NCBI GenBank assembly: GCA_903877165.1
Contig: CAIRCU010000006.1
Span: forward strand, 2,580-66,579
DNA: 64,000 nt
Reading direction: 5' to 3'
DNA from: Methanobacteriota archaeon
GTDB taxonomy: Archaea > Thermoplasmatota > E2 > DHVEG-1
Within the stretch, counting starts at the first letter, position 1. Each line of letters opens with the position of its first letter. The notes under the pieces were generated by a model. The model saw only the letters and a list, made by a program, of their open reading frames with translations, made no database searches and was not told the DNA's origin. The translations under genes and the position numbers were made by a program. Of this stretch, positions 7,709 to 50,178 are shown piece by piece.

Positions 7709-7767
7709 CCAGGAAAAGAAAGCAGCCCTGAAGCACCATCCCCCCTTTTTTGTTCCTCCTTGTGTGA

Positions 7768-7838
7768 CAGCCCCGGGCGGATTTGAACCGCCGACGTTGG
7801 CTCCAAAGGCCAAAATGTTGCCACTACACCACGGGGCT
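7768..7838 (-). tRNA. tRNA-Gln (anticodon UUG), archaeal-type
   Basis: Manual fold gives acceptor AGCCCCG/CGGGGCU, D-arm GTGT-AGTGGCA-ACAT, anticodon stem TTGGC/GCCAA with loop CTTTGGA (anticodon TTG), and T-arm GGCGG-TTCAAAT-CCGCC. There is no encoded CCA. The discriminator is G73. Confidence 0.85.
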
Positions 7839-7870
7839 ATAGACCTACCCGGTAACAGAGCCATGGCATT

Positions 7871-9559
7871 TTAAGGTTTAGGACCCGCCGCGCTCTGAAT
7901 CTTCCCCCATGTGTCCCGCAGTTCCGTCGTGCGGTTCAAGACGAGATGGCCGGGGGTCGTGTCAGTGTCGACGCAGAAGTACCCGAGGCGTTCGAACTGG
8001 AAGCGATCTAGCGGCTTGCAGGTCTTGACCGCTGGCTCGACCTTACACTGCTGCAGGATCTCCAGGGATTGGGGGTTCAGGAGCGTCTTATAGTCGGCGC
8101 CCTTCTGATCCAGGGGATCGCGTACCGTGAACAGCTTGTTGTACAATCGGACTTCAGCGTCCACGGCGTCCGATGCGGACACCCAGTGGATCGTTGACTT
8201 CACCTTCCGGCCGTCCGGGGCGTACCCGCCCTTGGTCGCCGGGTCGTACGTGCAGCGCAGCTCCACGACCTTTCCATCGCGTTTGACGACATCCCGGCAG
8301 GTGATGAAATACGCGTAGCGCAGCCGTACCTCGCGGCCCAGGGCGAGACGGTAGAACTTCGGCGGCGGCTGCTCCATGAAGTCGTCCTGTTCGATGTACA
8401 GGGTCTTGGAGAACGGGATCCGCCGCGAGCCCATGCCCGGGTCCTCAGGGTTGTTGACGGCGTCGACCTCCTCCTTGGTCTCCGGGTAGTTCTCAATCGT
8501 CACTTTCAATGGCCTTAGGACGCCCATGTACCGCGGCGCGGTCTTGTTGAGATCCTCGCGGATGCAGTACTCGAGGAACTCGAAGTCCACGATGCTGTTG
8601 ACCTTGGCGACACCGATGCGCTTGGCGAACGTCCGGATCCCTGAGGGTGAGTACCCGCGTCTGCGCATCCCGGAGATCGTCGGAAGCCTTGGGTCGTCCC
8701 AGCCTTTGACGAGGCCGTCATTCACGAGTTGCAGTAGCAGCCGTTTGCTCATCACCGTGAAGGTGAGGTTAAGGCGGGCGAACTCGATTTGCTGCGGGTG
8801 GTACACGCCGAGGGCGTCCAGGAACCAGTCGTACAGCGGACGGTGGTTCTCGAACTCAAGTGTGCAGATCGAATGCGTGATGTGCTCGATGGAGTCCTCG
8901 AGGCCGTGCGCCCAGTCGTACATTGGGTAAATACACCATTTATCCCCTGTGTTGTGATGGGTGGCGCGCAGGATGCGGTACATCACCGGGTCGCGCATGT
9001 TGAGGTTCGGGTGGTTCATGTCGATCTTTGCGCGCAGGACCTTGGAGCCGTCCGGGAACTCCCCGGCCTTCATGCGGCGGAACAACGAAAGGTTCTCGTC
9101 GATGGAGCGGTCGCGGTACGGGCTCTTCGTCCCTGGATTGGTGAGGGTGCCACGCAGCTCCGCGATCTGGTCCGCGGTGAGGTCGTCGACGTACGCCTTG
9201 CCTTTCTTGACAAGGTCTTCTGCGTACGTGTACATCTGGTCGAAATAGTCGGAGGCATAGAACAATCTGTCCTGCCAGTCGAAGCCGAGCCATTTGACGT
9301 CCGTGATGATGGACTGGACGTACTCCTCTTCTTCTTTGGCTGGGTTGGTGTCGTCGAAGCGCAGGTTGCATTTGCCGTTGTACTGCTCGGCGATGCCGAA
9401 GTTCAGGCAGATGGATTTCGCATGGCCGATGTGCAGGTAGCCGTTTGGCTCCGGTGGGAACCGGGTATGTACGCGTCCCTGGTACTTGTTGGACGCGAGG
9501 TCCGCGTCGATGATCTCTCGGATGAAGTCCTTGCTTGCCTGCGGCTCGGCCATCTTCAC
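7871..9559 (-). CDS. glnS: glutaminyl-tRNA synthetase, bacterial-type
   Basis: Full-length collinear similarity to E. coli GlnRS, including [27 protein letters not shown] (HIGH), [14 protein letters not shown] (KMSKS), WCIYPMYD and the C-terminal anticodon-binding beta-barrels (HWVSA...FQFERLGYF). Confidence 0.9.
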
Positions 9560-9584
9560 ATCTCCCTTTTCTTGTGGTGATGAA

Positions 9585-9656
9585 GCAGCCCCGAGCGGAT
9601 TCGAACCGCTGACAAGAGATCCAGAGTCTCCTATGTTAACCGCTACACCACGGGGC
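9585..9656 (-). tRNA. tRNA-Gln (anticodon CUG), archaeal-type
   Basis: Manual fold gives acceptor AGCCCCG/CGGGGCU, D-arm GTGT-AGCGGTTA-ACAT, anticodon stem GGAGA/TCTCT with loop CTCTGGA (anticodon CTG), and T-arm AGCGG-TTCGAAT-CCGCT. The discriminator is G73 and there is no encoded CCA. Confidence 0.85.
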
Positions 9657-9789
9657 TATGCGACTTGGGTGAAACAGAGAGCAGATAAAAAAAGGTAGCT
9701 ATAATACTTTTCAGGGCGTCCCGGCGCGATAGACGGGTGGGAGAAGCCCGTGTTGAGGACGGGGGACGCGAAAGGAGAGGCAGTGCGGT

Positions 9790-24819: not shown

Positions 24820-25171
24820 TTTTTGGACGTATATAGATATTAGGTGCCAGTTTTTGTGTGTTTGGCCAAAAACCCGGGGAGAACCTTTATTATTCCGCAA
24901 CGTCCTCTGTGCATGCGTGGGGAATACATGAAGACTGATAGCACCCCGGGGGGAATGACGACTGTGATGTGCGGCTTTGGAGGCCTTGTGGGATCTCTTC
25001 CCATTTGGAATGCCCAACGTTCCTTAGCCTTTTCAGGGTCGATGGCATCCCATATCTCCTCTTTCTCCTCAGATGGACGATCGCCTCCCGATCTCCATAA
25101 TCTTGTGCATGTACAAGCGTTCAAGGCTGCACAGTAGCGTCACCCCCTCCTCGGTGCTATACCTCCTCCAT

Positions 25172-27202
25172 ATGAATAGTAATTTTTATATACTCGAAGG
25201 TTCTTTGTTGGGGGTGGAGGCTAAGGGTTTCGTGCGACTGAGAATATTGGCGGTTAGTCTTCTATGCGTGTTATTGGCAAGCACTGCCTGGGGCGTCAGC
25301 TTGCCACGCACCACCGCTCCGCAAACCCTGGTCGTCCATCTCGACTTCCAAGCGCCAACCTTCGTCGCGGACGGCGACACGTATCGAATCACCATCCCGG
25401 AAGCTCCCGCCTGTCTCTTCGAACCCGGCTGGCCCGCCCTCCCAAAATACCTCCAGACCTTCACCCTGCCCTTCGGCGCCGACGTCACCAACGTCGCAAT
25501 ACACACCTCGCATACGTCCGTCCTCATCCTGTCACACCCACTCTCATCCACACCGATACCCGCGATAAGTGGTCTCCCCACGGACATCGTCAGCGAAAAC
25601 GCGTACGGGCCCATGGAGTTCTACCCGCCTCAACAAGTCCTCTACCAGACCGGAGGCGGACTCGACGCCGCAGGCAAGCACGTTACCTTCCTCACCCTCA
25701 TCGTCATCCCCGCCCAGTACCAGACCTCGACGACGGCCCTGCGCTGGGCATGCAACTGGACCATCACCCTGTCCTACACCATTCCCTCCCACAATCCGTT
25801 CCCTACCGAATCAACCACGCCACTGGTCATCATCACCCCCGCAAGGTTCACCAAGGCGCTCGAGCCGCTCGTCGCTCATAAGATTGCGCTCGGCATCCCG
25901 ACCACAGTGAAGACCCTCACCGACATCTACCGGGAATACAACGGAAGAGACAAAGCGGAACAAATCAAATTCTTTATCAAAGACGCGGTCGACCACTGGG
26001 GTACCAAATACGTCCTGCTCGTCGGCGGTATGTCCACGACGCTCTTTGGAATGCCACGGGACTCCTCAAGTCTCGGCGCGAACGACTGGTTCATCCCCGT
26101 CCGATACTCGAACCTCAAGGACTTCTACACACCCAGCGACCCCGGCTTCATCTCCGACCTCTATTACGCTGATTTGTACAACGGCAACGGGCAGTTCTGC
26201 AGTTGGGACTCCAACGGCGACGGCGTCTACGGCGGCTGGGACCAGCCGTCTCTGTCCGGCGGGACCGTCGTCCCCCTCGGTCATGGAACGGACACCCTCG
26301 ACTTCTACCCTGACGTCTGCGTCGGCCGTCTCCCCTGCCGGACGGTCGCAGAATGCCGCACCATGGTTGATAAAATCATCGCCTATGAAAGTGTCCCTGC
26401 GAGCGCCTCCTGGCTACAGCGCATCCTCGTGGCCGCAGGCGACCCGTACTACGACGCCGGCACGAACATTTATGAAGGCGAGGCGATCGGCGATGCCGTC
26501 ATCTCGGCCCTCCCAGGACTTCAATCCATGCGTCTCTACGCCTCGTTCGAGGGAAACGACTCCTCGGCAACTCCTCTGACCCGCAACATCCTTCGAGAGC
26601 TCGATGCGGGCTGCTGCTTCCTCTTGTTGGATGGTCATGGCGGGCCCGGCTGGTGGAACACCTGCTGGCCCGGGCGCTGCAACGCCACGATTCTCCTCGG
26701 TGGTCTCTCTGATGCTGATTTGTACCGGCTGCATAACGGGGGGCTGCTCCCTGTGACCGTCATCGGCGGCTGCCATTGCTGCCAGTTTAACGTTACCCTG
26801 CTGTCGACCCTCCTGGACCCCAGCAACTCCCATGCAACGTGGTCGAACGGCCATCCTCTGTTCCGCTGCCTTGGCGAGGCGCTTCTGATGAAGAAGAACG
26901 GCGGGAGCATCGCAGTGATTGGTTCCACGGGCCTTGGGTATGAGCAGTCCGGGGAGAACGGGGACCTGGATGGAGACGGGCGGAACCTGCCGGATAGCGC
27001 CGAGGCGCTCGGCGGGTACCTGGAGGTCTCGTTGTTCCAGGCGTACCAGAACGGGACCCGGACGCTTGGTATGCTGTGGACTCAGGCGATAGGGCAGTAT
27101 CTTGAGCATTACCCGGGGATGCTGAATCGCGATGATGCGAAGACCGTTGAGGAGTGGGTCGTGCTCGGCGACCCCAGCCTGCTCGTCGGCGGCCACACGT
27201 AG
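25172..27202 (+). CDS. secreted peptidase C25 (gingipain-like) family protein
   Basis: It has a signal peptide (RLRILAVSLLCVLLASTAWG), a catalytic His in LLLDGHGGPGWW and a Cys in VTVIGGCHCCQF. A GTG at 25232 is an alternative start; the ORF-track ATG at 25073 is probably too far upstream. Confidence 0.7.
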   Translation: MNSNFYILEGSLLGVEAKGFVRLRILAVSLLCVLLASTAWGVSLPRTTAPQTLVVHLDFQAPTFVADGDTYRITIPEAPACLFEPGWPALPKYLQTFTLPFGADVTNVAIHTSHTSVLILSHPLSSTPIPAISGLPTDIVSENAYGPMEFYPPQQVLYQTGGGLDAAGKHVTFLTLIVIPAQYQTSTTALRWACNWTITLSYTIPSHNPFPTESTTPLVIITPARFTKALEPLVAHKIALGIPTTVKTLTDIYREYNGRDKAEQIKFFIKDAVDHWGTKYVLLVGGMSTTLFGMPRDSSSLGANDWFIPVRYSNLKDFYTPSDPGFISDLYYADLYNGNGQFCSWDSNGDGVYGGWDQPSLSGGTVVPLGHGTDTLDFYPDVCVGRLPCRTVAECRTMVDKIIAYESVPASASWLQRILVAAGDPYYDAGTNIYEGEAIGDAVISALPGLQSMRLYASFEGNDSSATPLTRNILRELDAGCCFLLLDGHGGPGWWNTCWPGRCNATILLGGLSDADLYRLHNGGLLPVTVIGGCHCCQFNVTLLSTLLDPSNSHATWSNGHPLFRCLGEALLMKKNGGSIAVIGSTGLGYEQSGENGDLDGDGRNLPDSAEALGGYLEVSLFQAYQNGTRTLGMLWTQAIGQYLEHYPGMLNRDDAKTVEEWVVLGDPSLLVGGHT

Positions 27203-30180: not shown

Positions 30181-31899
30181 ATGGAGACCATGGAGACAGC
30201 CTCAGTTCAAGTACAGGCACCTAATAGCATTTCTTCACGCCCCGCGGGCAAACCTAAGATTGCATACTTCTCCATGGAGATCGGCATCGACGAACACATC
30301 CCCACCTACAGCGGAGGCTTAGGCATCCTCGCCGGAGACACCCTCAAAGCCGCCGCCGATCTCAACGTCCCCATCGTCGCCGTCACACTCCTCTCAGAAA
30401 AAGGCTACTTCTACCAAGAAATCGACCCAGACGGCAACCAAATCGAACGCCCCTACAACTTCAACATCAACGACTTCCTCAAACCACTCCCCAGTAAAAC
30501 CGACGTCACCATCGAAGGCCGCCCCGTCAACATCCGCATCTGGTACTACCTCGTCCAAGGCATCAGCGGCTACATCGTCCCCATCTTCTTCCTCGACACC
30601 AACCTCGAAGAAAACAGCGCCTACGACCGCGAAATCACCAAATACCTCTACGGCGGCGACACCCGCTACCGCCTCGCCCAAGAAATCATCCTGGGCATCG
30701 GCGGCATCCGCGCCATCCACGCCCTCGGCTACACCACCATCGACAAATACCACATGAACGAAGGACACGCAGCACTCGGCACACTCGAACTCTACCGCAG
30801 ATACCAAGAAGTCGACAAAGTCCGCGAACAATGCGTCTTCACCACCCACACCCCCGTCGCCGCAGGACACGACCAGTTCGACCTCACCCTCGTCAAATCC
30901 ATGATCGGCGACATGCTCCCCCAGAGCCTCTACCCCGAAGTGACCTTCGAAAACCGACTCAACATGACCAGGCTCGCCCTCTTCTTCAGCCACTACGTCA
31001 ACGGCGTCGCCAAACGCCACGGCGAAGTCTCCCGTCTCATGTTCCCCGGCTACGCCATCGACTCCATCACCAACGGCGTCCACACCGCCACCTGGGTCTC
31101 CGAGCCCTTCGCCAGAGTCTTCGACAAATACATGCCCGGCTGGCGCTCCGATCCATTCCTCCTGCGCGCCGCCTTCAGCATCGACAAAAACGACATCTGG
31201 GCAGCCCATATCGAAGCCAAGAAGAAACTCGTCGACTTCGTCAACAACCGCTACAACGTCGGCATGAACTACGACCATTTCACCATCGGTTTCGCCCGCA
31301 GACAGACCGCATATAAACGCCCTGAACTCCTCATCTCCGATCCCCAGAGACTCATGAACATCGCGGAAAAAGCAGGTCCCATCCAGATTATCTACGCGGG
31401 CAAAGCCCATCCCAAAGACGGCAGCGGCAAGGAATCCATCCGCCGCATCTACAGCGTCATGAAATCCATTAAAGGCAAAGTGAAAATGACGTACATCGAC
31501 AACTACGACATGGCGATCTCCAAGCTCATGACATCAGGCGTCGACATCTGGCTCAATACCCCCCGCCGTCCCCAGGAGGCATCTGGCACCTCCGGGATGA
31601 AAGCCGCACACAACGGCGTCCCCCAGTTCAGCACCCTGGATGGCTGGTGGATTGAAGGCAGAATCGAAAACATCACAGGCTGGGCCATCGGCACCAGGAA
31701 ATCCAACGAACGAGAATCAGACGACGACGCGGACCGCGATGACCTCTACACCAAACTCGAATCCTGGATCATGCCCAAATTCTACAATGACCGGGACAAC
31801 TGGATCCGCACGATGCGCAGCTGCATCGCCATCAATGCCTCCTTCTTCAACACCAACCGGATGATCCAGCAGTACGTCCTAAACGCGTACTTCATGTAG
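30181..31899 (+). CDS. glgP: alpha-glucan (glycogen/maltodextrin) phosphorylase, short archaeal type (GT35)
   Basis: YFSMEIG and SGGLGILAGD are the hallmark N-terminal motifs, and the PLP lysine region is EASGTSGMKAAHNG. Confidence 0.85.
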   Translation: METMETASVQVQAPNSISSRPAGKPKIAYFSMEIGIDEHIPTYSGGLGILAGDTLKAAADLNVPIVAVTLLSEKGYFYQEIDPDGNQIERPYNFNINDFLKPLPSKTDVTIEGRPVNIRIWYYLVQGISGYIVPIFFLDTNLEENSAYDREITKYLYGGDTRYRLAQEIILGIGGIRAIHALGYTTIDKYHMNEGHAALGTLELYRRYQEVDKVREQCVFTTHTPVAAGHDQFDLTLVKSMIGDMLPQSLYPEVTFENRLNMTRLALFFSHYVNGVAKRHGEVSRLMFPGYAIDSITNGVHTATWVSEPFARVFDKYMPGWRSDPFLLRAAFSIDKNDIWAAHIEAKKKLVDFVNNRYNVGMNYDHFTIGFARRQTAYKRPELLISDPQRLMNIAEKAGPIQIIYAGKAHPKDGSGKESIRRIYSVMKSIKGKVKMTYIDNYDMAISKLMTSGVDIWLNTPRRPQEASGTSGMKAAHNGVPQFSTLDGWWIEGRIENITGWAIGTRKSNERESDDDADRDDLYTKLESWIMPKFYNDRDNWIRTMRSCIAINASFFNTNRMIQQYVLNAYFM

Positions 31900-33744
31900 G
31901 AGCATCTTTTCGAACGGCGGCCTCCTCCCCTCGATATCCTCGATGAGTGTCCGGAGGACTTCAGCCACACTCCACGCCTGCGTGATACATCCCTGCGGCG
32001 AAAAGGGCGGCTCCGGGTCGAACAACTCCGGGATCGTCCCATCCCATCGCTCGCCGAACACCGTAAGCATCGGCTCAAGAAAAGCCTCCCGGGCATACCG
32101 CCGGATAGCCGCCGTACGTCCATGGGTCTTCACATACGCCGTGATGAACGGGCCAAGCAGCCACGGCCACACGATGCCGTTATGATAGGCCAGGTCTTTA
32201 TTCAACGGCTCGAACAGCGATCCTTTATACTGCGTATCATCAGCCGCCAGCGTCTTGAGCCCAAACGGCGAGAGGAGATGATTCTGCACACTCTCAACGA
32301 TAGCTTCCTGCAGCGGCGCGTCCACCAATGGGAAATCCAAGGAGACTAGGAAGATCTTGTTGGGCCGTAGCGACTTGTCTTTCGTATCAATGACATCGAA
32401 CTGTTGGTCGTACTGCCGCCGGAAACTCTCTGAGACGCGTTCCGCAAGGCTGCTGTATTGGTCTTTTCGATGGATCATCGTGGCACAAATCCCCATGATT
32501 TGGAGAGCATTGTACCATAGAGCCTGGATCTCCACCGCTTTCTGATTTCGTGGGGTCGGATAGTAATCCCCTATCTTCACGTCCATCCATGTCAGCCCCG
32601 GGCCATGACAAATCAGCCCATCGCTATCCATGTGAATACCGAAGTCCGTCCCTTTGATGTAATGCTGGATGATGCTGTCTAACGTCGGCCAGATTATATG
32701 GAGGAATTCCTCATCATTCGTGTACTTGAGGTACTGGAAGACCCGGTCGACGAACCACAGCGAGGCGTCGACGGTATTATAGGCAGGGGCGGAATCGCGG
32801 TCCATAAAGACGTTGGGCACGAGTCCGTTCCTACAATACTCCGCGAGACTGAGCAAGAGCTCCCGGGTCTTCTGGTACCGTTTGGTCACCAGGGTGATTC
32901 CGGGGAGGGCGATGAGAATATCCCTTCCCCAATCGCTGAACCAGTGATACCCAGCGACGATGCTCGTACCGTCGCCTTTCTGTACGAGGAACTGGTCGGC
33001 GGCAAGCATTAACGGTCTATAGTCTTTCGGCAAAGCCGCCTGCGAAAGCATTTCATCCAATCTGAGAAGTTCTTGATACTGAACTACTGCAGGATTGCTC
33101 GGCAGGTCAGGCTCCACGGTCATACAGAGATAGTAGGATGCGGAGGCTGACAGCTGTTTTTCAAAAGACCCGAGGCGCACCGCGGCATCGACCCATGCAT
33201 CCTTGCGCTCCCTATCTATTTCGTAGTGCAACTCTTCCCATGATTCATGTGGTGAATACGAGGCGTTCTCGACCCCGATCCTCAGAGTGCGATCGCTCCT
33301 GGATGTGGTGATTGCCACCTGGCCATTGGCCACGGATTGATGAAGGGAAAACGAACGAGGGGAGAGGCAGTCGTAGAAATGACGGGCGGTGACGATCGGC
33401 TGATGATAGAGCCGGCAGGGCCGTTTCGTGTCAACGTCGTACTTGATGACGGTCGTATTCTTTCCATGCTGCATGCAGAATGTTTTTGTTACCGTGATGT
33501 CTTCGAAGTGATATGATAACGAGGGCAAGAACTCGAACGAAAACACCGGGGTCACATCTTGGAGGCGAAGAGTTTTATCGCCGTACACCAGATAGTCATA
33601 GATGTTGGAGACGAACACCCAGCGGTTGGTCGGAGGCTGCAGGCTTGCGATGAGGAGTCCGTGGAATTTACGGGTCGTCCCATGATGATGCGTAAGCGAG
33701 GCGTACCCGCCAATCCCGTTGGTTACAATCCATTCCCGCATCAC
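31879..33744 (-). CDS. glycogen debranching enzyme, archaeal type (amylo-alpha-1,6-glucosidase family)
   Basis: The N-terminus EWIVTNGIGGYAS, a length of about 620 aa and a C-terminal (alpha/alpha)6 GDE-like region support the call. Confidence 0.75.
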   Translation of the reverse strand: MMREWIVTNGIGGYASLTHHHGTTRKFHGLLIASLQPPTNRWVFVSNIYDYLVYGDKTLRLQDVTPVFSFEFLPSLSYHFEDITVTKTFCMQHGKNTTVIKYDVDTKRPCRLYHQPIVTARHFYDCLSPRSFSLHQSVANGQVAITTSRSDRTLRIGVENASYSPHESWEELHYEIDRERKDAWVDAAVRLGSFEKQLSASASYYLCMTVEPDLPSNPAVVQYQELLRLDEMLSQAALPKDYRPLMLAADQFLVQKGDGTSIVAGYHWFSDWGRDILIALPGITLVTKRYQKTRELLLSLAEYCRNGLVPNVFMDRDSAPAYNTVDASLWFVDRVFQYLKYTNDEEFLHIIWPTLDSIIQHYIKGTDFGIHMDSDGLICHGPGLTWMDVKIGDYYPTPRNQKAVEIQALWYNALQIMGICATMIHRKDQYSSLAERVSESFRRQYDQQFDVIDTKDKSLRPNKIFLVSLDFPLVDAPLQEAIVESVQNHLLSPFGLKTLAADDTQYKGSLFEPLNKDLAYHNGIVWPWLLGPFITAYVKTHGRTAAIRRYAREAFLEPMLTVFGERWDGTIPELFDPEPPFSPQGCITQAWSVAEVLRTLIEDIEGRRPPFEKMLLHEVRV

Positions 33745-33769
33745 ATAACCTGTGGTATCGCTTGGTGTC

Positions 33770-35011
33770 TTAGAGGCATTCTTGGTAGATCTCCAAGGTC
33801 CGTTTCGTTACCGTATCCCAGGTGAATTCTTTGAGGACCCGCGCCCGCCCGTACTCGCCCATGGCTTTACCCTTATCCGGGAGGCTGAGGGCCTGTTTGA
33901 TTCCCCAGGCGATATCCTCAGGGGCGTAGGGGTTGACGTGGAAGCCGCACTGCTCGTCACCGCTGGGAGTGATCTGCTCGCGCATCCCGTTGGTGCCGCG
34001 GGCGCCGACGATGACCGGTTTTGCCATGGACATGGCTTCGGTGCAGACGATGCCGAACGGCTCGTACAACGACGGTAGGACAACGATGTCGGATGCCGCA
34101 TAATGCTGGATGCGTTCTGCTTCGTTGATGAACTCTGTTCTGAAAACCACGTGCTGCGCAATGCCCAGTTGGTCTGCCATGGACCGGAGGCTTTGCTCCA
34201 TGTCACCGACTCCGAGGATTACGAGTTTGACATTTGGGAACTCGCGGATGACTGCGGGCATGGCCTGGACGAGCTTGTCCACACCTTTCACTGCCACGAG
34301 CCGGCCGATGAAAAACACCATAATCTCGTTGGGATGGATGCCGTAGCGGCGCCGCAGCGCTTCACGCTGTTCGAGGGTGATGCGCTCCGGATTGTATTTC
34401 TCAGGGTCGACGCCGTTCCAACACACCCGGATTTTTTCTTGGGGGAATCCGAGTTTGAGGAGCTCGTCGGCCATGGCGTTGCTGACGGTTATGATTCGGT
34501 CTGCGATCTGGCCGCCTTCGTATTCGATGTCCTTGATCGTATGCGAGCCGCGGCCTATGGACCGGCCGACCTCCGTGGAGTGCACGTGGAAGACCAAGGG
34601 TATTTTCAATTCTTTCTTAGAGATGATGCCGCCCATGATGCCGAGCCAGTCGTGGCCGTCGATGATGTCGAAGCTGCGGCTGTTCTTGCGGACGAGGCCG
34701 TTGGTGAGCTGCGAGGTGGACATGATGTTGTAACTGAGGACGTCTGCGAAGAACTTGAAGTACGGTCCCCATGATCTCAGCTCGTGGTCCGCGCAGAGGT
34801 AGAACGTGCTTGTCAGGTCGAGGGTCTTGGGTCGGTAGACTTCGACGCCGTGGGTTAGGTCCATCGGTGGGAAGGTGTTGTCTCGATTCAGGGAGAAGAC
34901 GGCGACGTCGTGTTTCCAGGCAGCCATCTTCATGGTGACCTCGGAGACAAACGTACCGAGTCCTCCGTAGAGTACTGGGGGGTACTCCCAGGAAAAATGT
35001 ACGATCTTCAT
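33770..35011 (-). CDS. glycosyltransferase, GT4/GT5 glycogen-synthase-like
   Basis: MKIVHFSWEYPPVLYGGLG is a glycogen-synthase-type start, and the C-terminal motif is EPFGIVCTEAMSMAKPVI. Confidence 0.7.
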   Translation of the reverse strand: MKIVHFSWEYPPVLYGGLGTFVSEVTMKMAAWKHDVAVFSLNRDNTFPPMDLTHGVEVYRPKTLDLTSTFYLCADHELRSWGPYFKFFADVLSYNIMSTSQLTNGLVRKNSRSFDIIDGHDWLGIMGGIISKKELKIPLVFHVHSTEVGRSIGRGSHTIKDIEYEGGQIADRIITVSNAMADELLKLGFPQEKIRVCWNGVDPEKYNPERITLEQREALRRRYGIHPNEIMVFFIGRLVAVKGVDKLVQAMPAVIREFPNVKLVILGVGDMEQSLRSMADQLGIAQHVVFRTEFINEAERIQHYAASDIVVLPSLYEPFGIVCTEAMSMAKPVIVGARGTNGMREQITPSGDEQCGFHVNPYAPEDIAWGIKQALSLPDKGKAMGEYGRARVLKEFTWDTVTKRTLEIYQECL

Positions 35012-35027
35012 AGGGTGGCTTCTCTCC

Positions 35028-36224
35028 TCACTTGCCGTTAACCTTTTCCTTGAGATCCTGAAGAATGTTCATGTAGTTTATGAATCCATCGTACGGGACT
35101 TCATAGGGGCTGAAGTACGCATGCACGGTGCCGTCCTCGAAGCCTTTGGTGGAAAGGTAGTAGAGGTGGTCCGAGGTCTGTAGCAGCCGCCAGACGTTGA
35201 GCAGCTCCTTGTCCTTAGGCCTCTGTTTCTTGATCATACGTCCGATGTCTTTGAGTTCGTTGAAGCAGGCGATCTGCATGTTGTTGCCCAGCCAAGTGGA
35301 GACGTTGCGGTCCTCGTCAGCCCAGGAGATCGCCCAGGGGACGTCGATGTCGCCGACCGCCTGGTACTTCTCGACGGCTTCGCTGACGGTCGCAAACTCG
35401 AGGTTGTCGTACTTGAGGACCTCGTTGGGGAGGTGTTTGAGGAATTCGAAGATGCCGGTATCCTCCCACTGGTGCTCGCCGAAGGTCTCGTAATCCATGA
35501 ACAGGTTGATGACGTCGCCGAAGGAGTTGGACATCCAGCGTGCGTACTTGTCCGCGGTGAGCGGATAGCCGCTCCAGTTCTTCGCGCCGAACCGGAAGCC
35601 GACGTCGTCGCTGAGCTTGTAGTTGCGCATCAGGACCTTGATGTTGGAGTACTGGGATTTGTACACGAAGTTAGGGGACCGCCACCCCAGGATCCGCTCC
35701 GAGCCTTCGGTGAGGATGCCCTCGTAGCCCATGTCCGCGACCTTCCCCGCGATCCTGTTGTCGTAGATCGTCTCAGTGTTGCGGAAGGATTTCGGCGAGT
35801 AGTTGAAGATTTTCTTGATCGTCTGCCGATGCTGTTTCACCTGCGCTTCGAACTCATCGAGGTCGTCGAAGAGGCTGGAGAGCGAGTGGTAGTAGGTCTC
35901 ATCTAGGAGGTCGACGGCCCCGGTCTTCACTAGGTCCTTGAAGCTGTCCAGCAGCTCCGGCAGGAACATCTGACAGTATTCGATGAAGGTGCCCGTGAGG
36001 CTGTACGAGATGCGGAACTTGCCGTCGGTCTTGCGGATGAGATCCAGTAAAAGCTTATTCGTCGGAAGGTAGCATTTCCTCGCGACTTTCTCAAAGATCT
36101 TCTGGTTGAGCTCGTGGTTGAAGTAGGTCGCGTACGGATCCTCGGTATGCCCGATGTTGAACACCGAGAACCGGCTCAGCCTCATGGGTTGGTGGACTTC
36201 GAAGTAGAACACGACGGATGGCAT
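35028..36224 (-). CDS. glycoside hydrolase family 57 protein (alpha-amylase/glucanotransferase-type)
   Basis: FYFEVHQP is the GH57 region I. MDYETFGEH carries the catalytic Glu, and a downstream Asp region is present. Confidence 0.8.
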   Translation of the reverse strand: MPSVVFYFEVHQPMRLSRFSVFNIGHTEDPYATYFNHELNQKIFEKVARKCYLPTNKLLLDLIRKTDGKFRISYSLTGTFIEYCQMFLPELLDSFKDLVKTGAVDLLDETYYHSLSSLFDDLDEFEAQVKQHRQTIKKIFNYSPKSFRNTETIYDNRIAGKVADMGYEGILTEGSERILGWRSPNFVYKSQYSNIKVLMRNYKLSDDVGFRFGAKNWSGYPLTADKYARWMSNSFGDVINLFMDYETFGEHQWEDTGIFEFLKHLPNEVLKYDNLEFATVSEAVEKYQAVGDIDVPWAISWADEDRNVSTWLGNNMQIACFNELKDIGRMIKKQRPKDKELLNVWRLLQTSDHLYYLSTKGFEDGTVHAYFSPYEVPYDGFINYMNILQDLKEKVNGK

Positions 36225-37342
36225 TACGCAAGACCCCTGTAGACCCGGAGCGTCTGATCCGCTACCCGGTCCCAGGTAAATAATTGTACTTCTCTTTTTG
36301 AACTTTGCCTCATCGTGCTATGTAGGGAGTCATACCGCAGCAGGGCGATGATTTTGTTCGCCATCTCGTCGGTATCCCAAAAATCAACCTTAAAACAGTT
36401 CTTCAGTACCTCGGAGACGCCTGCGCTGCGGGACACGATGGTCGGGGTCCCCGCCGAGATCGCCTCAAGGGCCGTAATCCCAAAAGGTTCGCTGACCGAG
36501 GGCATCACGTAGATGCTGGAGATCTTATAGATGTGCTGGACTTCCTCATCGGACAGTTTGCCGGTGAAGACCACCTTGTTGGAGATGCCCATGTCCACGG
36601 CCTGGTTGATGAGTTTGGGCATCATGTCGCCCACGCCCGCGATGACGAACTTCGCGTCCTCGTACTCCAGGACCTTCTTCGCTGCCTTTAAAAAGAACTC
36701 TGGTCCCTTCTGGATCGTCAGGCGACCTAAGAACAGAACGAGCGGTTTCTTCTCCCCTTCTTCCTCCGTGGGGTACACCGCGTTGTGGATGACCGTGATT
36801 TTCTCAGCTGGAATCCCGTATTTCTCCACGACGATCTTCTTGGTGTAGTTGCTGACCGCGATGATCCGGTCCGCCTTCTGCATGCCTTCGCGTTCCAAGT
36901 CGATGAACCACTGGTTCGGGTACAGCATACCGGCACGGTCGTACTCGGTCGAGTGAACCGTCAGGACCAGAGGGATGTGCAGCTTCTCCTTGATTTGAAC
37001 ACCGGCCTTCATCGTCAGCCAGTCGTGGACGTGCACCACGTCGTAGTTGCCTTTGACGCGGGCAGCGAGCAGGTTGTTGTACCGGTACACGAGGTCGAAG
37101 AACTTGCCGCCCAGGGCTTTGTCATCCGGACGGTCATATGGAAAGATGGCATCACCGGGCTCGCCGACCTCGATGATCTTGATGTTCTTGTTATCACTCT
37201 TCACTTTTTGCCGCAGCTTCGGCATGTAAAAGTCAATATGGACGTTTTTTTCGGCGAGGCCATGGGTCAACCCATAGCAATGGGTACCTAAACCACCAAC
37301 TTTAAAGGGCGGGTATTCCCAGCCGAGCATTGCAACTTTCAT
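36224..37342 (-). CDS. glycosyltransferase, GT4/GT5 glycogen-synthase-like (paralog of 33770-35011)
   Basis: MKVAMLGWEYPPFKVGGLG and EPFGITALEAISAGTPTIVS are present. Confidence 0.7.
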   Translation of the reverse strand: MKVAMLGWEYPPFKVGGLGTHCYGLTHGLAEKNVHIDFYMPKLRQKVKSDNKNIKIIEVGEPGDAIFPYDRPDDKALGGKFFDLVYRYNNLLAARVKGNYDVVHVHDWLTMKAGVQIKEKLHIPLVLTVHSTEYDRAGMLYPNQWFIDLEREGMQKADRIIAVSNYTKKIVVEKYGIPAEKITVIHNAVYPTEEEGEKKPLVLFLGRLTIQKGPEFFLKAAKKVLEYEDAKFVIAGVGDMMPKLINQAVDMGISNKVVFTGKLSDEEVQHIYKISSIYVMPSVSEPFGITALEAISAGTPTIVSRSAGVSEVLKNCFKVDFWDTDEMANKIIALLRYDSLHSTMRQSSKREVQLFTWDRVADQTLRVYRGLA

Positions 37343-45357: not shown

Positions 45358-47742
45358 ATGGCTGCACGACGGAAAATGTATTCATTGATTATCCTGCTGT
45401 TGCTTCTGAGCGCGAATGCCGCGGCGATCGTCCCGGTTCTCGCTCAATCGACATCACCTGATTCTGAATCTCAACAAAGCGCAGCATCCGCAGTAAAAGA
45501 ACCATCCGTAGTCCCGTTTACCTTCACGGTCTACGGAAAAGACGGACTGCGAACGTACACCACTCAGATGCCGTTCGCTGACGCGCAAGCCATTCTCGCG
45601 TCCTGCCGCACTCTCGCCAACACTATGGTCAGCAACCCACAGGGGACGACAAATCCGGGTCTGCAAGATCAGCTCCTGACCACGCTCCTAGCGCATCATG
45701 CCATCCCACAAGAAATCAAAGACAACGTGCTCGCTGTCCTGCGTCAGACGCCCAGATTTCCCTTCAGTTCCCATGAGAGCCGACATCTCACCCAGTTCAA
45801 CTCCCAGGCAAGCGAATGGCTCTGCAGCTTCGCCTCTGCGGGGGATGGCTCCTCCCTACCGATTATCATCCTGCCGCGGTTCATCCCCTTTATCCTGACC
45901 CCGATTCCGCGTGTGATCATGCGATGGAACGCTGACTATGCGGTCACCTCCTGCGGTGCGCTGCGGTCAAGCAACGGGTTCATCGCCGAAGGCGCACAGA
46001 GCGGTATCGCCCTGGGATTCTGGGGCATCGGCTTCACCGTCCACCTTCCACCCTTCATGAACACCTACGGGTTGTTCGGATACGCGGTCTACTCCCATGT
46101 GACCTCGGACTACATCGAGTTCTACCCTCCGAACAATCCTCCGGAGATCTCCGGCAGTGACCCCGCCGACGGCCAAACGGATGTCCCTGTGGCGCTCAGC
46201 GAGCTTCGGTTCCGCCTCGCCGATGCGGACGGAGACCTCATGAGCTACAACGTAACCACCATCCCGGACATCGGCTCCGGCAGCGGTGGTCTCAAGCCTG
46301 ACGGCGTCTACTCCTTACCTGTCAGCGGATTGAAAGAACTCACGAAGTACTCGTGGACCGTCAGCGTATCAGACGGCAAGGACACCACCACTCAGACTTA
46401 TTCCTTCACGACCGAAGGCGTCTCCCCTATCGTCTCCAACCCCCGGCCCTTCGATGGGGAAAAGGAAGTCCAAACCGACCTCACCGAGCTGCGCTTCACC
46501 CTGCAAGACCCCCAGCATGACTTCATGAGCTACACCGTCCAGACCTCTCCGGACATCGGGTCCGCAAGCGCCACGAACGTCGCGGGAGGAACCTACACCG
46601 TGCCTGTCAACGGCCTGACCATCGGGACCCTCTACCATTGGTACATCAACGCCACCGACGGGACCCATTGGACTAGGATGGTCCTCAGCTTCACCTCAGG
46701 GTACCCCTCCCACTTCAACCCCTATGACTATGGATGGCAGTACCGAAAACAGATCACTATCGACCACACCAAGGTCACTGAGCCCCTCACGAACTTCACG
46801 GTCCTCATCAGCATCACGGACAGCGACCTGACGAAGGCACAAAGCGACGGAGGCGACATCCTCTTCATGGACAACACCGGTTCCGCCGTGAAGATCCACC
46901 ATGAAATCGATGTCTTCGACTCATCCACCGGCACGCTTGCCGCATGGGTCCAAGTCCCTGAGCTATCCTCCACCACTGACACGGTGTTCTACATGTACTA
47001 CGGGAACCCTACCTGCGTCGACCAAGCATACCCTCAGGAGACCTGGGATTCCTCGTACCTCGCAGTCTGGCACATGGGGGACGCAACGACTTCGACCATC
47101 ACGGACAGCACGAATAACGACAACACCGGGACGAAAGGCGTAGTCAACGGACCGACGGAGCAGGGCGGCGTGACCGGAACAAGCCAGGACTTCGACGGCA
47201 CCGACGACTACATCCAATTCACCACCCCCATCATCCCCACCGGGCCAAAGACCGTCACCGGATGGATCAAGCGGCATACCACGGCAGACTACGGTGTCGT
47301 CCTCGCGACCTCCACCGGGATTAGCAGCCTAGACCGCGGAACCGCGTGGACCATGATCCCCGGCAACGACAAAAAAATGCAGTGCTTCCTCGGCAACGAC
47401 GAGTACGGATCCCATTACATGACCGTCTACATCACGATCCCAGACCTGACGAATTGGCACTACTACGCTATGACCTACGACGGTACGACCCTGCAGATGT
47501 ACCTCGATGGGTCCTCCGATGTCTCGACGACCACCAAGGTCGGCAGCGAAACCCCGCCAGACTACAACCTCCGCATGGGCAAGACCAACCATCCTTCCTA
47601 CGTCTACCCCCTCGACGGCACCCTCGATGACATCACCATCTCGGATGTCCCCCGCAGCATCGGTTGGGTACAGACATCGTACCAGACGATGAGCGACCCC
47701 GCACACTTCTTCACTGAAGGACCGGAGGAACACGGTCCATAA
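45358..47742 (+). CDS. large secreted protein, paralog 1: novel N-domain + 2x Ig/FN3-like + DUF2341 + LamG (concanavalin-like)
   Basis: It has a signal peptide (LIILLLLLSANAAAIVPVLA). The DUF2341 signature is YGWQYRKQITIDH...NFTVLISITDSDL...DGGDILFMD...WVQVPELSS..DTVFYMYYGNP. The LamG_3-like C-terminus is LDDITISDVPRS. Confidence 0.7.
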   Translation: MAARRKMYSLIILLLLLSANAAAIVPVLAQSTSPDSESQQSAASAVKEPSVVPFTFTVYGKDGLRTYTTQMPFADAQAILASCRTLANTMVSNPQGTTNPGLQDQLLTTLLAHHAIPQEIKDNVLAVLRQTPRFPFSSHESRHLTQFNSQASEWLCSFASAGDGSSLPIIILPRFIPFILTPIPRVIMRWNADYAVTSCGALRSSNGFIAEGAQSGIALGFWGIGFTVHLPPFMNTYGLFGYAVYSHVTSDYIEFYPPNNPPEISGSDPADGQTDVPVALSELRFRLADADGDLMSYNVTTIPDIGSGSGGLKPDGVYSLPVSGLKELTKYSWTVSVSDGKDTTTQTYSFTTEGVSPIVSNPRPFDGEKEVQTDLTELRFTLQDPQHDFMSYTVQTSPDIGSASATNVAGGTYTVPVNGLTIGTLYHWYINATDGTHWTRMVLSFTSGYPSHFNPYDYGWQYRKQITIDHTKVTEPLTNFTVLISITDSDLTKAQSDGGDILFMDNTGSAVKIHHEIDVFDSSTGTLAAWVQVPELSSTTDTVFYMYYGNPTCVDQAYPQETWDSSYLAVWHMGDATTSTITDSTNNDNTGTKGVVNGPTEQGGVTGTSQDFDGTDDYIQFTTPIIPTGPKTVTGWIKRHTTADYGVVLATSTGISSLDRGTAWTMIPGNDKKMQCFLGNDEYGSHYMTVYITIPDLTNWHYYAMTYDGTTLQMYLDGSSDVSTTTKVGSETPPDYNLRMGKTNHPSYVYPLDGTLDDITISDVPRSIGWVQTSYQTMSDPAHFFTEGPEEHGP

Positions 47743-47762
47743 AAAAAATAGGAGATAGAATC

Positions 47763-50159
47763 ATGAGAAAAGAACGGTATAGTAAAATACAGCTTGTCCT
47801 CTGCATATGCCTCCTGTCGGTATTGCTCTGCGCAAGCCTAGCCCCTACCCTCGCAAGTCCGATATCCTACAACGCAACGCCACAAACGTCCAAGACGACG
47901 GTCGCAACAGAACCCCAGGCCATCCCCTTCACCGTCACGGTCTACGAAAAGACAGGGCTTCGTACCTACACGACCCAGATGAAGGAAAGCGACATCCAAG
48001 CCATCCTGCAGGAAGCATCAGCGCTGAGACTCGCTGTGCAGCACTCGCCGCAGGCAGAAGCAACCCAGCAGCTCCAAACGCAGTTTATCACCTCGTTACT
48101 TACGTATCAGGCGATACCGCAAGAAGCCAAGGACCAGGTGCTCGCCTCGCTGATGCAGCCGCCGACACTGCGCTCCCGCCACACTTCAGCTTCTCCCTTG
48201 TCCGGCACTAGCTCGGAAGGGACGGAATGGCTCTGCAACTTTGTCTCTGCTGGAGAAGGTTCCTCAGCGCCGATCATCATCCTGCCGCGGTTCATCCCCT
48301 TCATCCTCAGTCCCATCCCGCGTGTGTTCATGCGCTGGAGCGCTGACGACGCAATCACCTCCTGTGGCGCTCTACGGTCAAACAACGGGTTCGTCGCTGA
48401 AGGCGCACAGAGCGGTATCGCCCTGGGATTCTGGGGCATCGGCTTCACCGTCCACCTCCCGCCCCTCATGAACTCCTACGGTTTGTTCGGGTATGCTCTC
48501 TATGCGCATGTGACCGCTGATTACATAGAGTTCTTCCCGCCGAACAGCCCACCGGAGATCACGGGCGCTGACCCCGCCAATAATCAGCAGAACGTCCCGG
48601 TTACGCTGTCGGAACTGCGTTTCCAAATCGCTGACGCTGACCAGGATCTCATGAGTTACAACGTGACTACTTATCCGGATATCGGCTCCGGCAGTGGCGG
48701 CCTCAAATCCGATGGTGTCTACACGATTCCGATTAGCGGCCTGCAGGAACTCGCGAGCTACACCTGGCATGTCACGGTCAGTGACGGAAAGGATACAACG
48801 GATCAGACCTACAAGTTCACCACTGAAGCCGTAGCCCCGGTCATCTCAAACCCAAATCCTGCCGATGGGGAGCGCGAAGTCCCCATGGACATCCCTCAGC
48901 TTCAGTTCACCCTGAAAGACTACCAGCATGATGCCATGGACTATACTGTCGTGACGCAGCCAGATATCGGATCTGTTCAAGCCACAGGGGTCCACGATGG
49001 AACCTACACGGTCCCCGTGTCCGGTCTCACCTATGGCGTGACCTATCGATGGTTCATCAATGCGACCGACGGTACGCACTGGACCAGGAAGGTTCTTTCC
49101 TTCATCACGGGATACCCGTCGATTTTCGATCCATACGACTACGGCTGGCACTATCGCAAGCAGATCACCATCATACACGGCCAGGTCGCTGCCGACCTTC
49201 AGAACTTCCCGGTCCTCATCAGCATGACGGACCCAGATCTCGTTAGAGCACAGGCGGATGGCGCGGATTTCTTGTTCATGAGCGGACCAGGGCCCGCCAC
49301 CAAATGGCACCATGAGATTGAGACTTTCACGCACGACTCCGGCAGCCTTGTCGCCTGGGTCAACATCCCGCAGCTGTCCTCAACCCAGGACACCACCTTT
49401 TACCTGTACTATGGGAATCCGAACAGCTCTGACCAACAATATCCTGAAAAAACCTGGGATTCGTCAACCCTTGCCGTCTGGCATATGAATGACGCCACCA
49501 CATCGACTATCAAGGACAGCACGGGGCATGGTTTCACAGGCGTCAAGAAGGCGGCGTTGATGCCTTCGCAATGGTCCGGGAAGGTCGGCTATGGGCAGCT
49601 CTTCAACCTCACAGATTCAATATGGGAGTACATCGTCGTTTACGATCAAGGAGGCCTCAGCATCCCCAATGATTTCACCCTCTCTGCATGGATTCTGCCT
49701 TACACCGATGCTGGCATGAACGTCGCAGGGAAGCACCAGGAGATCCGGGCAGATTATTCGGGATATGCCATCCATTGGAACGTAGTGGGTTCTGAGACGA
49801 AGATGTCCCTGCGTTGCGATGGAGGCGGGTACGCATACCAATACATCTATGCGGACAACCAAGTTCCCAGCAATACCTGGTACTATTTGTCTGGTGAGAA
49901 GCGACTCGGGACGAACTATGTGTTCGTCGACGGCCAGCAGCAGAGCCATACCGGGACACAGTCCCTCCTCAACTCCGAGTACCCGTTCTGCATCGGTGCT
50001 TGGACGACTGACCCGAATAGCATCAACTTCAATGGCGTCATCGATGAGGTCCGCCTCTCGTCCACAGGTCGATCCCCTGCGTGGATCCAGACCGAGTATC
50101 ACACCATGAGTGATCCTGCATCGTTCTTCACGGTAGGGCCTGAGGAACATAGTCCATAA
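47763..50159 (+). CDS. large secreted protein, paralog 2 (same architecture)
   Basis: It has a signal peptide, a conserved N-domain (QSGIALGFWGIGFTVHLPP), DUF2341 (YGWHYRKQITIIHG...FYLYYGNP) and a LamG-like C-terminus (IDEVRLSSTGRSPAWIQTEY). Confidence 0.7.
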   Translation: MRKERYSKIQLVLCICLLSVLLCASLAPTLASPISYNATPQTSKTTVATEPQAIPFTVTVYEKTGLRTYTTQMKESDIQAILQEASALRLAVQHSPQAEATQQLQTQFITSLLTYQAIPQEAKDQVLASLMQPPTLRSRHTSASPLSGTSSEGTEWLCNFVSAGEGSSAPIIILPRFIPFILSPIPRVFMRWSADDAITSCGALRSNNGFVAEGAQSGIALGFWGIGFTVHLPPLMNSYGLFGYALYAHVTADYIEFFPPNSPPEITGADPANNQQNVPVTLSELRFQIADADQDLMSYNVTTYPDIGSGSGGLKSDGVYTIPISGLQELASYTWHVTVSDGKDTTDQTYKFTTEAVAPVISNPNPADGEREVPMDIPQLQFTLKDYQHDAMDYTVVTQPDIGSVQATGVHDGTYTVPVSGLTYGVTYRWFINATDGTHWTRKVLSFITGYPSIFDPYDYGWHYRKQITIIHGQVAADLQNFPVLISMTDPDLVRAQADGADFLFMSGPGPATKWHHEIETFTHDSGSLVAWVNIPQLSSTQDTTFYLYYGNPNSSDQQYPEKTWDSSTLAVWHMNDATTSTIKDSTGHGFTGVKKAALMPSQWSGKVGYGQLFNLTDSIWEYIVVYDQGGLSIPNDFTLSAWILPYTDAGMNVAGKHQEIRADYSGYAIHWNVVGSETKMSLRCDGGGYAYQYIYADNQVPSNTWYYLSGEKRLGTNYVFVDGQQQSHTGTQSLLNSEYPFCIGAWTTDPNSINFNGVIDEVRLSSTGRSPAWIQTEYHTMSDPASFFTVGPEEHSP

Positions 50160-50178
50160 GTCAAATGAAGGGAAAGAT

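Follow-up and report, generated by a model that had tools for sequence, protein, structure and literature searches.

The 64,000-nucleotide stretch analysed here (the window), from the archaeal contig CAIRCU010000006.1, encodes a bacterial-type glutaminyl-tRNA synthetase (GlnRS; gene glnS) between two tRNA-Gln genes. The same arrangement recurs across a clade of Thermoplasmatota archaea, and the flanking tRNAs differ at a small set of positions from the tRNA-Gln of other archaea. We think it probable, taking all the parts jointly, that the gene was acquired once from bacteria and then descended vertically, that it forms a compact unit with the two tRNA genes, and that the enzyme charges these tRNAs, remodelled versions of the native archaeal molecules, directly with glutamine. 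This explanation builds on gene identities, a clade, a conserved synteny and tRNA differences that are established below.

The glnS locus and its flanking tRNA genes

The window glnS lies on the minus strand (7871-9553) and encodes 560 residues from the ATG at 9553, matching the length of its database relatives; an alternative GTG start at 9559 would give 562 residues. A search for tRNA genes with ARAGORN and the Rfam model RF00005 (gathering score 29) returned two in the whole window, both tRNA-Gln and both on the minus strand: tRNA-Gln(CUG) at 9586-9657 (Rfam, 61.1 bits), upstream of glnS, and tRNA-Gln(UUG) at 7768-7838 (63.2 bits), downstream of it. An earlier note on this DNA had already placed glnS between these two isoacceptors on one strand; its coordinates for tRNA-Gln(UUG) were exact and those for tRNA-Gln(CUG) (9585-9656) were off by one base. 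Each tRNA begins with AGCCCCG and ends with CGGGGCU-G, giving an A1-U72 pair and G73, and has no encoded CCA, as the note had also read them. Their anticodon loops are CUCUGGA (CUG) and CUUUGGA (UUG), the type that the note had described. The D-loop is 8 nucleotides (nt) long in tRNA-Gln(CUG) (AGCGGUUA) and 7 nt long in tRNA-Gln(UUG) (AGUGGCA), and the T-loop of the latter reads UUCAAAU.

The three genes are tightly packed. The spacer between tRNA-Gln(CUG) and the glnS ATG (9554-9585, minus strand) is 32 nt long and contains a GGGAG Shine-Dalgarno-like motif, and the second one, from the glnS stop codon to tRNA-Gln(UUG) (7839-7870, minus strand), is 32–35 nt long, depending on where the tool used places the 5’ end of the tRNA. 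Neither contains a TATA-like box. A putative archaeal promoter (9699-9712, minus strand) precedes the mature tRNA-Gln(CUG) by about 42–55 nt, counted from its 5’ end; in it, a purine-rich B recognition element (BRE) is followed by a TATA box (GAAAAG-TATTATAG). On the other side, 3’ of tRNA-Gln(UUG), a T-rich tract (CTTTCTTTTCC; 7712-7722, minus strand) is a candidate oligo-T terminator, and a convergent open reading frame (ORF) on the plus strand ends at 7708. The unit would thus run from the BRE/TATA promoter through tRNA-Gln(CUG), 32 nt, glnS, 32 nt and tRNA-Gln(UUG) to the T-rich tract. Because the spacers are too short to hold an independent archaeal promoter, we infer that the unit is transcribed as a single tRNA-mRNA-tRNA precursor, from which RNase P and RNase Z would free both tRNAs, so that the synthetase and its two substrates would be made together.

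This organization is conserved. We examined 17 loci of the archaeal GlnRS clade described below (other loci are given our own L numbers) and all 17 contain the module or one half of it, with tRNA-Gln on the same strand as glnS, so that the compact three-gene module proposed in the earlier note holds well beyond the window. Both sides of glnS are visible in the window, L002, L110, L086, L051, L208 and L210, and one side in L109, L123, L124, L037, L045, L073, L090, L023, L075 and L001. The distance from tRNA-Gln to glnS is 32–155 nt in 14 loci and 273–2411 nt in L001, L023 and L075. The CUG-glnS-UUG order itself recurs in sister genomes, for example in L002 and in contig MUGE01000080.1 of Thermoplasmata archaeon M11B2D (L208), and an identical copy of the window’s tRNA-Gln(UUG) lies 3’ of glnS in L002, L109, L110, L208 and L210. 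In 10 loci (the window, L002, L110, L073, L037, L045, L086, L051, L124 and L075), tRNA-Gln(CUG) is preceded at the same distance, about 40–55 nt, by a BRE/TATA-like box resembling AAA-N-TATATA. L002 has an equally short spacer and, like the window, no TATA-like box in either internal spacer. In L109 and L110, glnS and tRNA-Gln(UUG) lie farther apart, and this downstream tRNA has a TTAAATAAAAT box of its own, indicating that co-transcription is not obligatory across the clade. In L123, a tRNA-Glu-like sequence lies just 3’ of the tRNA-Gln.

Linkage of glnS to tRNA-Gln exists on the bacterial side too. In the bacterial relatives L178, L180, L191 and L194, a tRNA-Gln(CUG) with a U1-A72 pair lies 50–85 nt 3’ of glnS on the same strand, so that the single orientation and very short spacers of the archaeal module have a bacterial counterpart. 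The tufB operon of E. coli (thrU-tyrU-glyT-thrT-tufB) likewise combines tRNA genes with the gene of a translation factor in one orientation and with short spacers. Compared with such bacterial tRNA-protein operons, the archaeal module is set apart by its predicted archaeal promoter, by tRNAs on both sides of the ORF and by tRNAs that are cognate to the enzyme.

An archaeal clade of bacterial-type GlnRS

Judged by its sequence, the window enzyme is a bona fide GlnRS, having all the sequence-defined features of the family. It scores 732.6 bits against the glnS model TIGR00440 (cut-off 425.8) and 370 bits against the archaeal glutamyl-tRNA synthetase (GluRS) model, which is under the cut-off of 401.75, and the three GlnRS/GluRS domains in Pfam (PF00749, PF03950 and PF20974) cover it end to end. 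Among known structures it matches the GlnRS of P. aeruginosa (710 bits), E. coli (696) and T. thermophilus (587) best, followed by those of D. radiodurans (505), human (482) and yeast (419). The E. coli structures align with residues 8-552, in agreement with the end-to-end alignment claimed in the earlier note, and both the HIGH motif and a KMSKS-type motif (TVMSKR) are present.

We then mapped individual residues onto E. coli MG1655 GlnRS, whose numbering is used here, in 17 archaeal sequences and 78 bacterial relatives. H40, H43 and K270 are invariant in both sets. All 17 archaeal enzymes retain the glutamine pocket (R30, Y211, C229 and Q255) and the residues that read the anticodon (R341, R402, R410, R412, Q517 and R520), and 15 of them retain L136 in the loop that unpairs 1-72, the other two having W or V. 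The loop that recognizes G36, which contains R402, and the 1-72 unpairing loop, which contains L136, are both absent from archaeal non-discriminating GluRS (ND-GluRS) (PMC2978374). Since the determinants for glutamine, for the YUG anticodon and for opening of the 1-72 pair are kept, we infer that this GlnRS charges both flanking tRNAs directly with glutamine. Two substitutions in the acceptor-stem-binding region are typical of the clade: R130 is replaced by A, S or T in 16/17 archaeal enzymes, compared to R in 60/78 of the bacterial relatives, and D235 is replaced by N in 15/17. In E. coli, D235N is known as a relaxed-specificity mutant.

The domain order and length of the window enzyme are those of bacterial GlnRS such as E. 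coli GlnS (PDB 1GTR and 1QTQ) and the P. aeruginosa enzyme (5BNZ); it differs from them in its archaeal host and in the clade’s replacement of R130 and D235. Its best NCBIfam match is PRK14703 (845 bits), the model of the Deinococcus-type GlnRS/YqeY fusion (PDB 2HZ7). However, the match covers only positions 10-560 of the 769 in the model, and the window GlnRS has no YqeY/GatB-like C-terminal domain, the tRNA-binding domain that marks the fusion. Wherever a clade locus includes the end of the gene, as 14 do, the ORF stops 0–7 residues past the GlnRS core; a bacterial relative with a 227-residue extension (L202) served as positive control for YqeY. Many clade members are nevertheless called ‘glutamine--tRNA ligase/YqeY domain fusion protein’ by the NCBI Prokaryotic Genome Annotation Pipeline (PGAP), although they are about 560 residues long. 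The name is misleading, as it follows the best-scoring hidden Markov model, PRK14703, whose YqeY part is unmatched.

A database search with the window GlnRS gave 8000 scored candidates, of which we examined the best 120. These are 77–100% identical to it, about 560 residues long and encoded on contigs of up to 4.23 Mb, and their names, where given, are ‘Candidatus Thermoplasmatota archaeon’, ‘Thermoplasmata archaeon’ and ‘Thermoplasmata archaeon M11B2D’. Close relatives, 78–89% identical, number in the hundreds, closed genomes among them. M11B2D, whose module is described above, is a metagenome-assembled genome (MAG) of the Thermoprofundales, also named MBG-D (for Marine Benthic Group D), from Mai Po (PMC6461988), and the Thermoprofundales correspond to class E2 of GTDB (PMC9585477).

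In a neighbour-joining (NJ) tree of 114 GlnRS sequences (558 trimmed columns), all sequences with archaeal tRNA flanks form one clade, recovered in 98 of 100 bootstrap replicates, which is nested among bacterial GlnRS of about 560 residues that are 60–72% identical to the window protein. Wherever flanking genes or tRNAs allow a check, the branches next to this clade are bacterial. L127 carries a bacterial tRNA-fMet with an encoded CCA, and L171, L178, L184, L180, L191 and L194 carry tRNA-Gln with U1-A72. For the NJ sister group L155/L177, a 76% identical relative (protein P0378, locus L203) has a bacterial-type GluRS gene immediately upstream of glnS, and its close relative L205, the contig of L177, has Omp28 genes downstream of glnS. 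At L203 (8600-11674) and L204, from a marine bacterium (2.2-Mb contig), the bacterial-type gltX (PF00749 and PF19269) stops 4 nt short of glnS in the same orientation, which makes a gltX-glnS tandem in the lineage that is the weakly supported NJ sister of the archaeal clade.

The simplest reading of this tree points to a single, old transfer of glnS from a bacterium to an archaeon, followed by vertical descent. The recipient would have been an ancestor of the Thermoplasmatota clade that includes Thermoprofundales (MBG-D, class E2), and the gene, about 560 codons long, would since have come to match its host in base composition. The earlier note’s view of the enzyme as bacterial-type and laterally derived is borne out by the nesting of the clade, whereas a recent or isolated acquisition is not: the GlnRS belongs to an apparently vertically inherited clade that is common in this lineage and includes M11B2D, which is the finding that the note itself had named as counting against its proposal. 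Base composition likewise gives no sign of a recent insertion and matches the host, glnS having a GC content of 0.60 and a third-position GC content (GC3) of 0.84, compared to GC3 values of 0.68–0.85 for the other genes of the window.

Most members of the clade come from MAG contigs and their closest relatives outside it are bacterial, which raises the question of whether bacterial glnS genes were mis-binned or chimerically assembled into archaeal contigs. Several observations refute this, and we give the idea practically no credence. Archaeal tRNAs with A1-U72 lie within 32–35 nt of glnS on both sides, and the same junctions occur in more than 15 independent assemblies, including a 4.23-Mb record, a 1.99-Mb chromosome record and contigs of 785 kb and 961 kb. 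Furthermore, synteny between the window and L002 (785-kb contig; GlnRS 88% identical) extends to neighbouring genes such as folC, and the codon composition of glnS fits the host.

Origin and remodelling of the flanking tRNAs

We next compared three sets of tRNA-Gln: 15 unique glnS-linked sequences, 62 unique canonical archaeal sequences and 6 bacterial sequences found beside related bacterial glnS genes. The canonical set came from a species scan, which took one genome per GTDB species and the pattern AGCCCCGTGGTGTAG-N-CTYTGGA and covers at least 120 loci. Overall, the linked tRNAs have an identity of 0.75 to canonical archaeal tRNA-Gln and of 0.53 to bacterial tRNA-Gln. They are closer to the archaeal set in the acceptor stem (0.98 compared to 0.31), the D-arm (0.78 compared to 0.67), the variable region (0.62 compared to 0.23) and the T-arm (0.72 compared to 0.55); the anticodon arm, which is variable, is level (0.61 and 0.63). 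Their sequences indicate that the linked tRNAs derive by remodelling from the archaeal hosts’ own tRNA-Gln and did not arrive with the gene, which agrees with the native origin suggested in the earlier note.

If glnS had instead come with a bacterial tRNA-Gln as a cassette, today’s tRNAs would be its archaealized descendants. Such a cassette could have looked like the bacterial loci with tRNA-Gln(CUG) 50–85 nt 3’ of glnS, and the linked archaeal tRNAs do share the bacterial D-loop length. However, their region-wise identity is at least as high to archaeal tRNA-Gln throughout, with only the anticodon arm level, and overall they are no nearer to bacterial tRNA-Gln than the canonical archaeal tRNAs are (0.53 in each case). 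On these region-wise identities we rejected co-transfer and regard it as very unlikely. A likeness of the variable-loop ‘GUC’ to bacterial tRNA-Gln was also considered and was dropped because it is inconsistent across the clade.

The remodelling of the native tRNA, which we favour, can be followed position by position. Column 20 of the D-loop holds a nucleotide in 61/62 canonical sequences (A in 58) and is empty in 15/15 linked ones; column 19 is filled in 62/62 canonical sequences (C in 61) and empty in 8/15 linked ones. As a result, the linked D-loop measures 7–8 nt, compared to 9 nt in the canonical form (AGYGGCCAA, with nucleotides 20a/20b). Nucleotide 46 is A in 61/62 canonical tRNAs and G or U in 10/15 linked ones, nucleotide 57 is G in 58/62 and A in 9/15, respectively, and nucleotide 73 is A in 55/62 canonical tRNAs, with G in 10/15 and A in 5/15 of the linked set. 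The changes are concentrated in the molecule’s elbow and core, the part read by the tail domain of GatE, which senses the size of the tRNA-Gln D-loop and positions 19/20 (PMC2330236), and the A1-U72 pair is untouched. Native tRNA-Gln would thus have been remodelled in elbow, core and acceptor end, by loss of 20a/20b and changes at 46, 57 and 73, and these changes may be adaptive.

The E. coli GlnRS identity set consists of U1-A72, G2-C71, G3-C70, G73, G10, the YUG anticodon, A37 and U38 (drawn in part from PMC9976931). The window tRNAs have G2-C71, G73, G10, the YUG anticodon and a weak A-U pair at 1-72, in reversed orientation. They lack G3-C70, A37 and U38, so that the presumed archaeal substrates have A1-U72, C3-G70, G37 and A38 in place of U1-A72, G3-C70, A37 and U38 in the substrates of bacterial GlnRS. 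The flanking tRNAs appear to fit neither type of tRNA-Gln, the canonical archaeal or the bacterial.

Among the matches listed in the species scan, a short D-loop is present in 10/11 linked and 4/88 unlinked tRNA-Gln (p = 7e-10), and G73 in 5/11 linked and 8/88 unlinked ones (p = 0.005), by Fisher tests that treat related genomes as independent and carry no phylogenetic correction. A D-loop shortened by 1–2 nt, on which the earlier note is silent, is thus a sharper correlate of glnS linkage than G73 is. Of the same matches, 40/40 from archaea outside the Thermoplasmatota and 34/42 unlinked ones from Thermoplasmatota have A73, which confirms A73 as the archaeal norm, as the earlier note had assumed. 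These discriminator counts leave out 24 loci (for example L008, L016, L021, L025, L050 and L064) whose tRNA-Gln fits the pattern in its 5’ half and is interrupted after the anticodon loop or in the T-arm, presumably by introns at canonical and non-canonical positions.

The earlier note had suggested co-adaptation of the tRNAs, and in that reading a change from A73 to G73 would be the key step that let a bacterial GlnRS use archaeal tRNA-Gln. G73 is indeed an identity element of E. coli GlnRS set against an archaeal norm of A73 (PMC9499178), and it is enriched in linked tRNAs, both in the scan and among the unique sequences. As a signature of co-adaptation it is nevertheless weak, given the five linked sequences with A73 and the eight unlinked Thermoplasmatota tRNAs with G73. 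Both isoacceptors flanking glnS in the chromosome record CP070767.1 have A73, as do the linked tRNAs of L037, L045 and L073. Conversely, G73 occurs with no glnS in the retrieved block of sequence in seven Thermoplasmatota tRNA-Gln whose D-loop has the canonical 9 nt (L003, L018, L046, L053, L062, L113 and L114; one carries the label Thermoplasmataceae). In the bacterial relatives L180, L191 and L194 the same type of GlnRS is paired with an A73 tRNA-Gln, and in the GlnRS alignment a single column, located in the anticodon domain, tracks A73 versus G73, with no other residue doing so. We consider a key role for G73 improbable. Rather, it appears to be a standing polymorphism confined to Thermoplasmatota (0/40 in other archaea among the matches listed), and in an alternative reading a pre-existing polymorphism would have eased the acquisition of glnS rather than answered it.

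GatDE, the wider window and implications

Archaea that use the indirect pathway, such as M. thermautotrophicus (PDB 2D6F), make Gln-tRNA with ND-GluRS and GatDE. The window shares with this system the tRNA lineage (AGCCCCG stem and A1-U72) and an archaeal-type GluRS, encoded at 52689-54395 on the minus strand (PRK04156, 530.9 bits with a cut-off of 516; TIGR00463 gltX_arch, 500.6 bits), as the earlier note had it. It differs in having a dedicated GlnRS and, across the clade, tRNAs without 20a/20b, most of them with G73. PMC2978374 provided no usable signature residue for a discriminating archaeal GluRS. We probed ORFs of at least 200 residues in the window and the retrieved loci with an approximate B. 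subtilis GatB sequence and found no GatB/GatE-like ORF in the window or the clade loci, which represent a small part of each genome. The only matches were to bacterial L202, in its YqeY tail, and to L038, whose Woesearchaeota GatE was confirmed against the PDB. For M11B2D, the supplement of PMC6461988 lists scaffold_622_3 (M11B2D_scaffold_622_3) as gatE (K03330, arCOG01719, 1e-153) among highly transcribed genes, with 12926 transcripts per million (TPM); its best nr match is a bacterial protein with 40% identity, and the MAG has 5x coverage (PMC6461988).

These data bear on a possible division of labour, in which ND-GluRS and GatDE would act on canonical tRNA-Gln (A73, 9-nt D-loop) and GlnRS on the remodelled linked set, possibly in the window organism as well. 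The remodelling would then serve to insulate two sets of tRNA rather than simply to fit tRNA to GlnRS. Two loci have both types of tRNA. In Thermoplasmatales archaeon SRP067234_co1_304 (CAYPIF010000051.1; L090, 5665-7697), the genes that come after glnS, in the same orientation, are a canonical tRNA-Gln(UUG) with A73 and a 9-nt D-loop, a remodelled tRNA-Gln(UUG) with G73 that lies 88 nt further on, and a tRNA-Glu(UUC). The 5.5-kb contig of Thermoplasmatales archaeon binchicken_co256_245 (L029, 124-2213) has one tRNA-Gln(UUG) of each type, encoded in opposite directions 2 kb apart: the copy with the short D-loop has G73 and is almost the same sequence as the linked CUG tRNA of L075, and the copy with the canonical D-loop has A73. 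This contig begins 123 nt before the first tRNA, so that any glnS would lie off it. M11B2D combines the glnS module with the gatE annotation, and the changed nucleotides include the D-loop that GatDE reads (PMC2330236). On the other hand, neither gatD nor gatE was found in the window or the retrieved part of the clade genomes, the gatE entry is a single annotation line from that thinly covered MAG with its bacterial best match, and CP070767.1 has only the two glnS-flanking tRNA-Gln among the matches listed in the species scan. Furthermore, GatDE rejects larger, not smaller, D-loops, and shortening alone need not block it. Two insulated systems are, on balance, unlikely, though less so than a key role for G73.

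Direct charging of remodelled native tRNAs within an inherited module therefore stays our preferred explanation, and several points weigh against it. The annotation of gatE in M11B2D means that the direct route may not be the sole one, and the remodelled tRNAs keep A1-U72, the identity pair of GatDE. The linked tRNAs with A73 (L037, L045, L073 and L086) show that a change of the discriminator is not required. Co-transcription is read from how short the spacers are and from promoter-like boxes, the tree was built by neighbour joining from 558 columns, and the Fisher tests carry the assumption of independence stated above. No donor lineage can be named: the NJ sister group of the archaeal clade is a marine bacterium (L155/L177) with a support of 29/100, and the names attached to the top representatives in the donor look-up were ‘bacterium’, Gammaproteobacteria and Plasmodium only.

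The rest of the window is archaeal, as the earlier note had concluded; the GluRS, an archaeal-type glycogen debranching enzyme and the names of near-identical GlnRS proteins agree on this. The debranching enzyme belongs to a glycogen/alpha-glucan cluster (30181-37342), whose other products are an alpha-glucan phosphorylase, a GH57 enzyme and two glycosyltransferases resembling GT4/GT5. On the plus strand, 45358-52551 holds a tandem array of three paralogous ORFs (794, 798 and 790 residues); the latter two have DUF2341 and concanavalin-like Laminin_G_3 domains, and the first has no NCBIfam match. A 709-residue protein (25073-27202, plus strand) weakly matches the peptidase C25 region of the type IX secretion system (T9SS) sortase PorU, and a Peptidase_C25 protein is also encoded near glnS on the 961-kb contig of a relative (L210, 3445-5952). 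Both fit with reports of extracellular C25 peptidases in MBG-D.

According to reviews from the years through 2022, GlnRS is not encoded by any archaeon (PMC9499178, PMC2330236, PMC5388404); one of them found none in the archaeal genomes analysed (PMC5388404). The reason given is a ‘unique archaeal tRNA-Gln favoured by GatDE’ that E. coli and yeast GlnRS do not charge (PMC2330236; PMC9499178; PMC5388404), and this tRNA has been called ‘a barrier to acquisition of GlnRS in Archaea’ (PMC2330236). A preprint mentions in passing a GlnRS beside cox genes in Heimdallarchaeia (Hodarchaeales/Kariarchaeaceae; bioRxiv 10.1101/2024.07.04.601786), which is likewise an annotation in archaeal MAGs, in another phylum and another neighbourhood and with no tRNA linkage described. 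We found no description of the Thermoplasmatota clade in the literature searched, most subscription journals being outside the search. The sequences themselves are not new, being publicly annotated as glutamine--tRNA ligase; here a known enzyme family occurs in a domain said to lack it, within a conserved unit of tRNA, synthetase and tRNA whose substrate tRNA has been remodelled.

For annotation, the lesson is not to take the absence of glnS from an archaeal genome for granted. More broadly, the clade is a natural counter-example to the barrier, a bacterial GlnRS fixed in abundant sediment archaea, and its linked tRNAs show both what changed (20a/20b, 46, 57 and 73) and what stayed (A1-U72). 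If two insulated systems do coexist, they would represent a natural orthogonal tRNA-Gln pair, an intermediate frozen partway through replacement of the indirect pathway by the direct one. More speculatively, the GlnRS/tRNA pair might be orthogonal in bacterial or eukaryotic hosts. With defined variants of enzyme and tRNA, the 25-year-old barrier hypothesis becomes directly testable.

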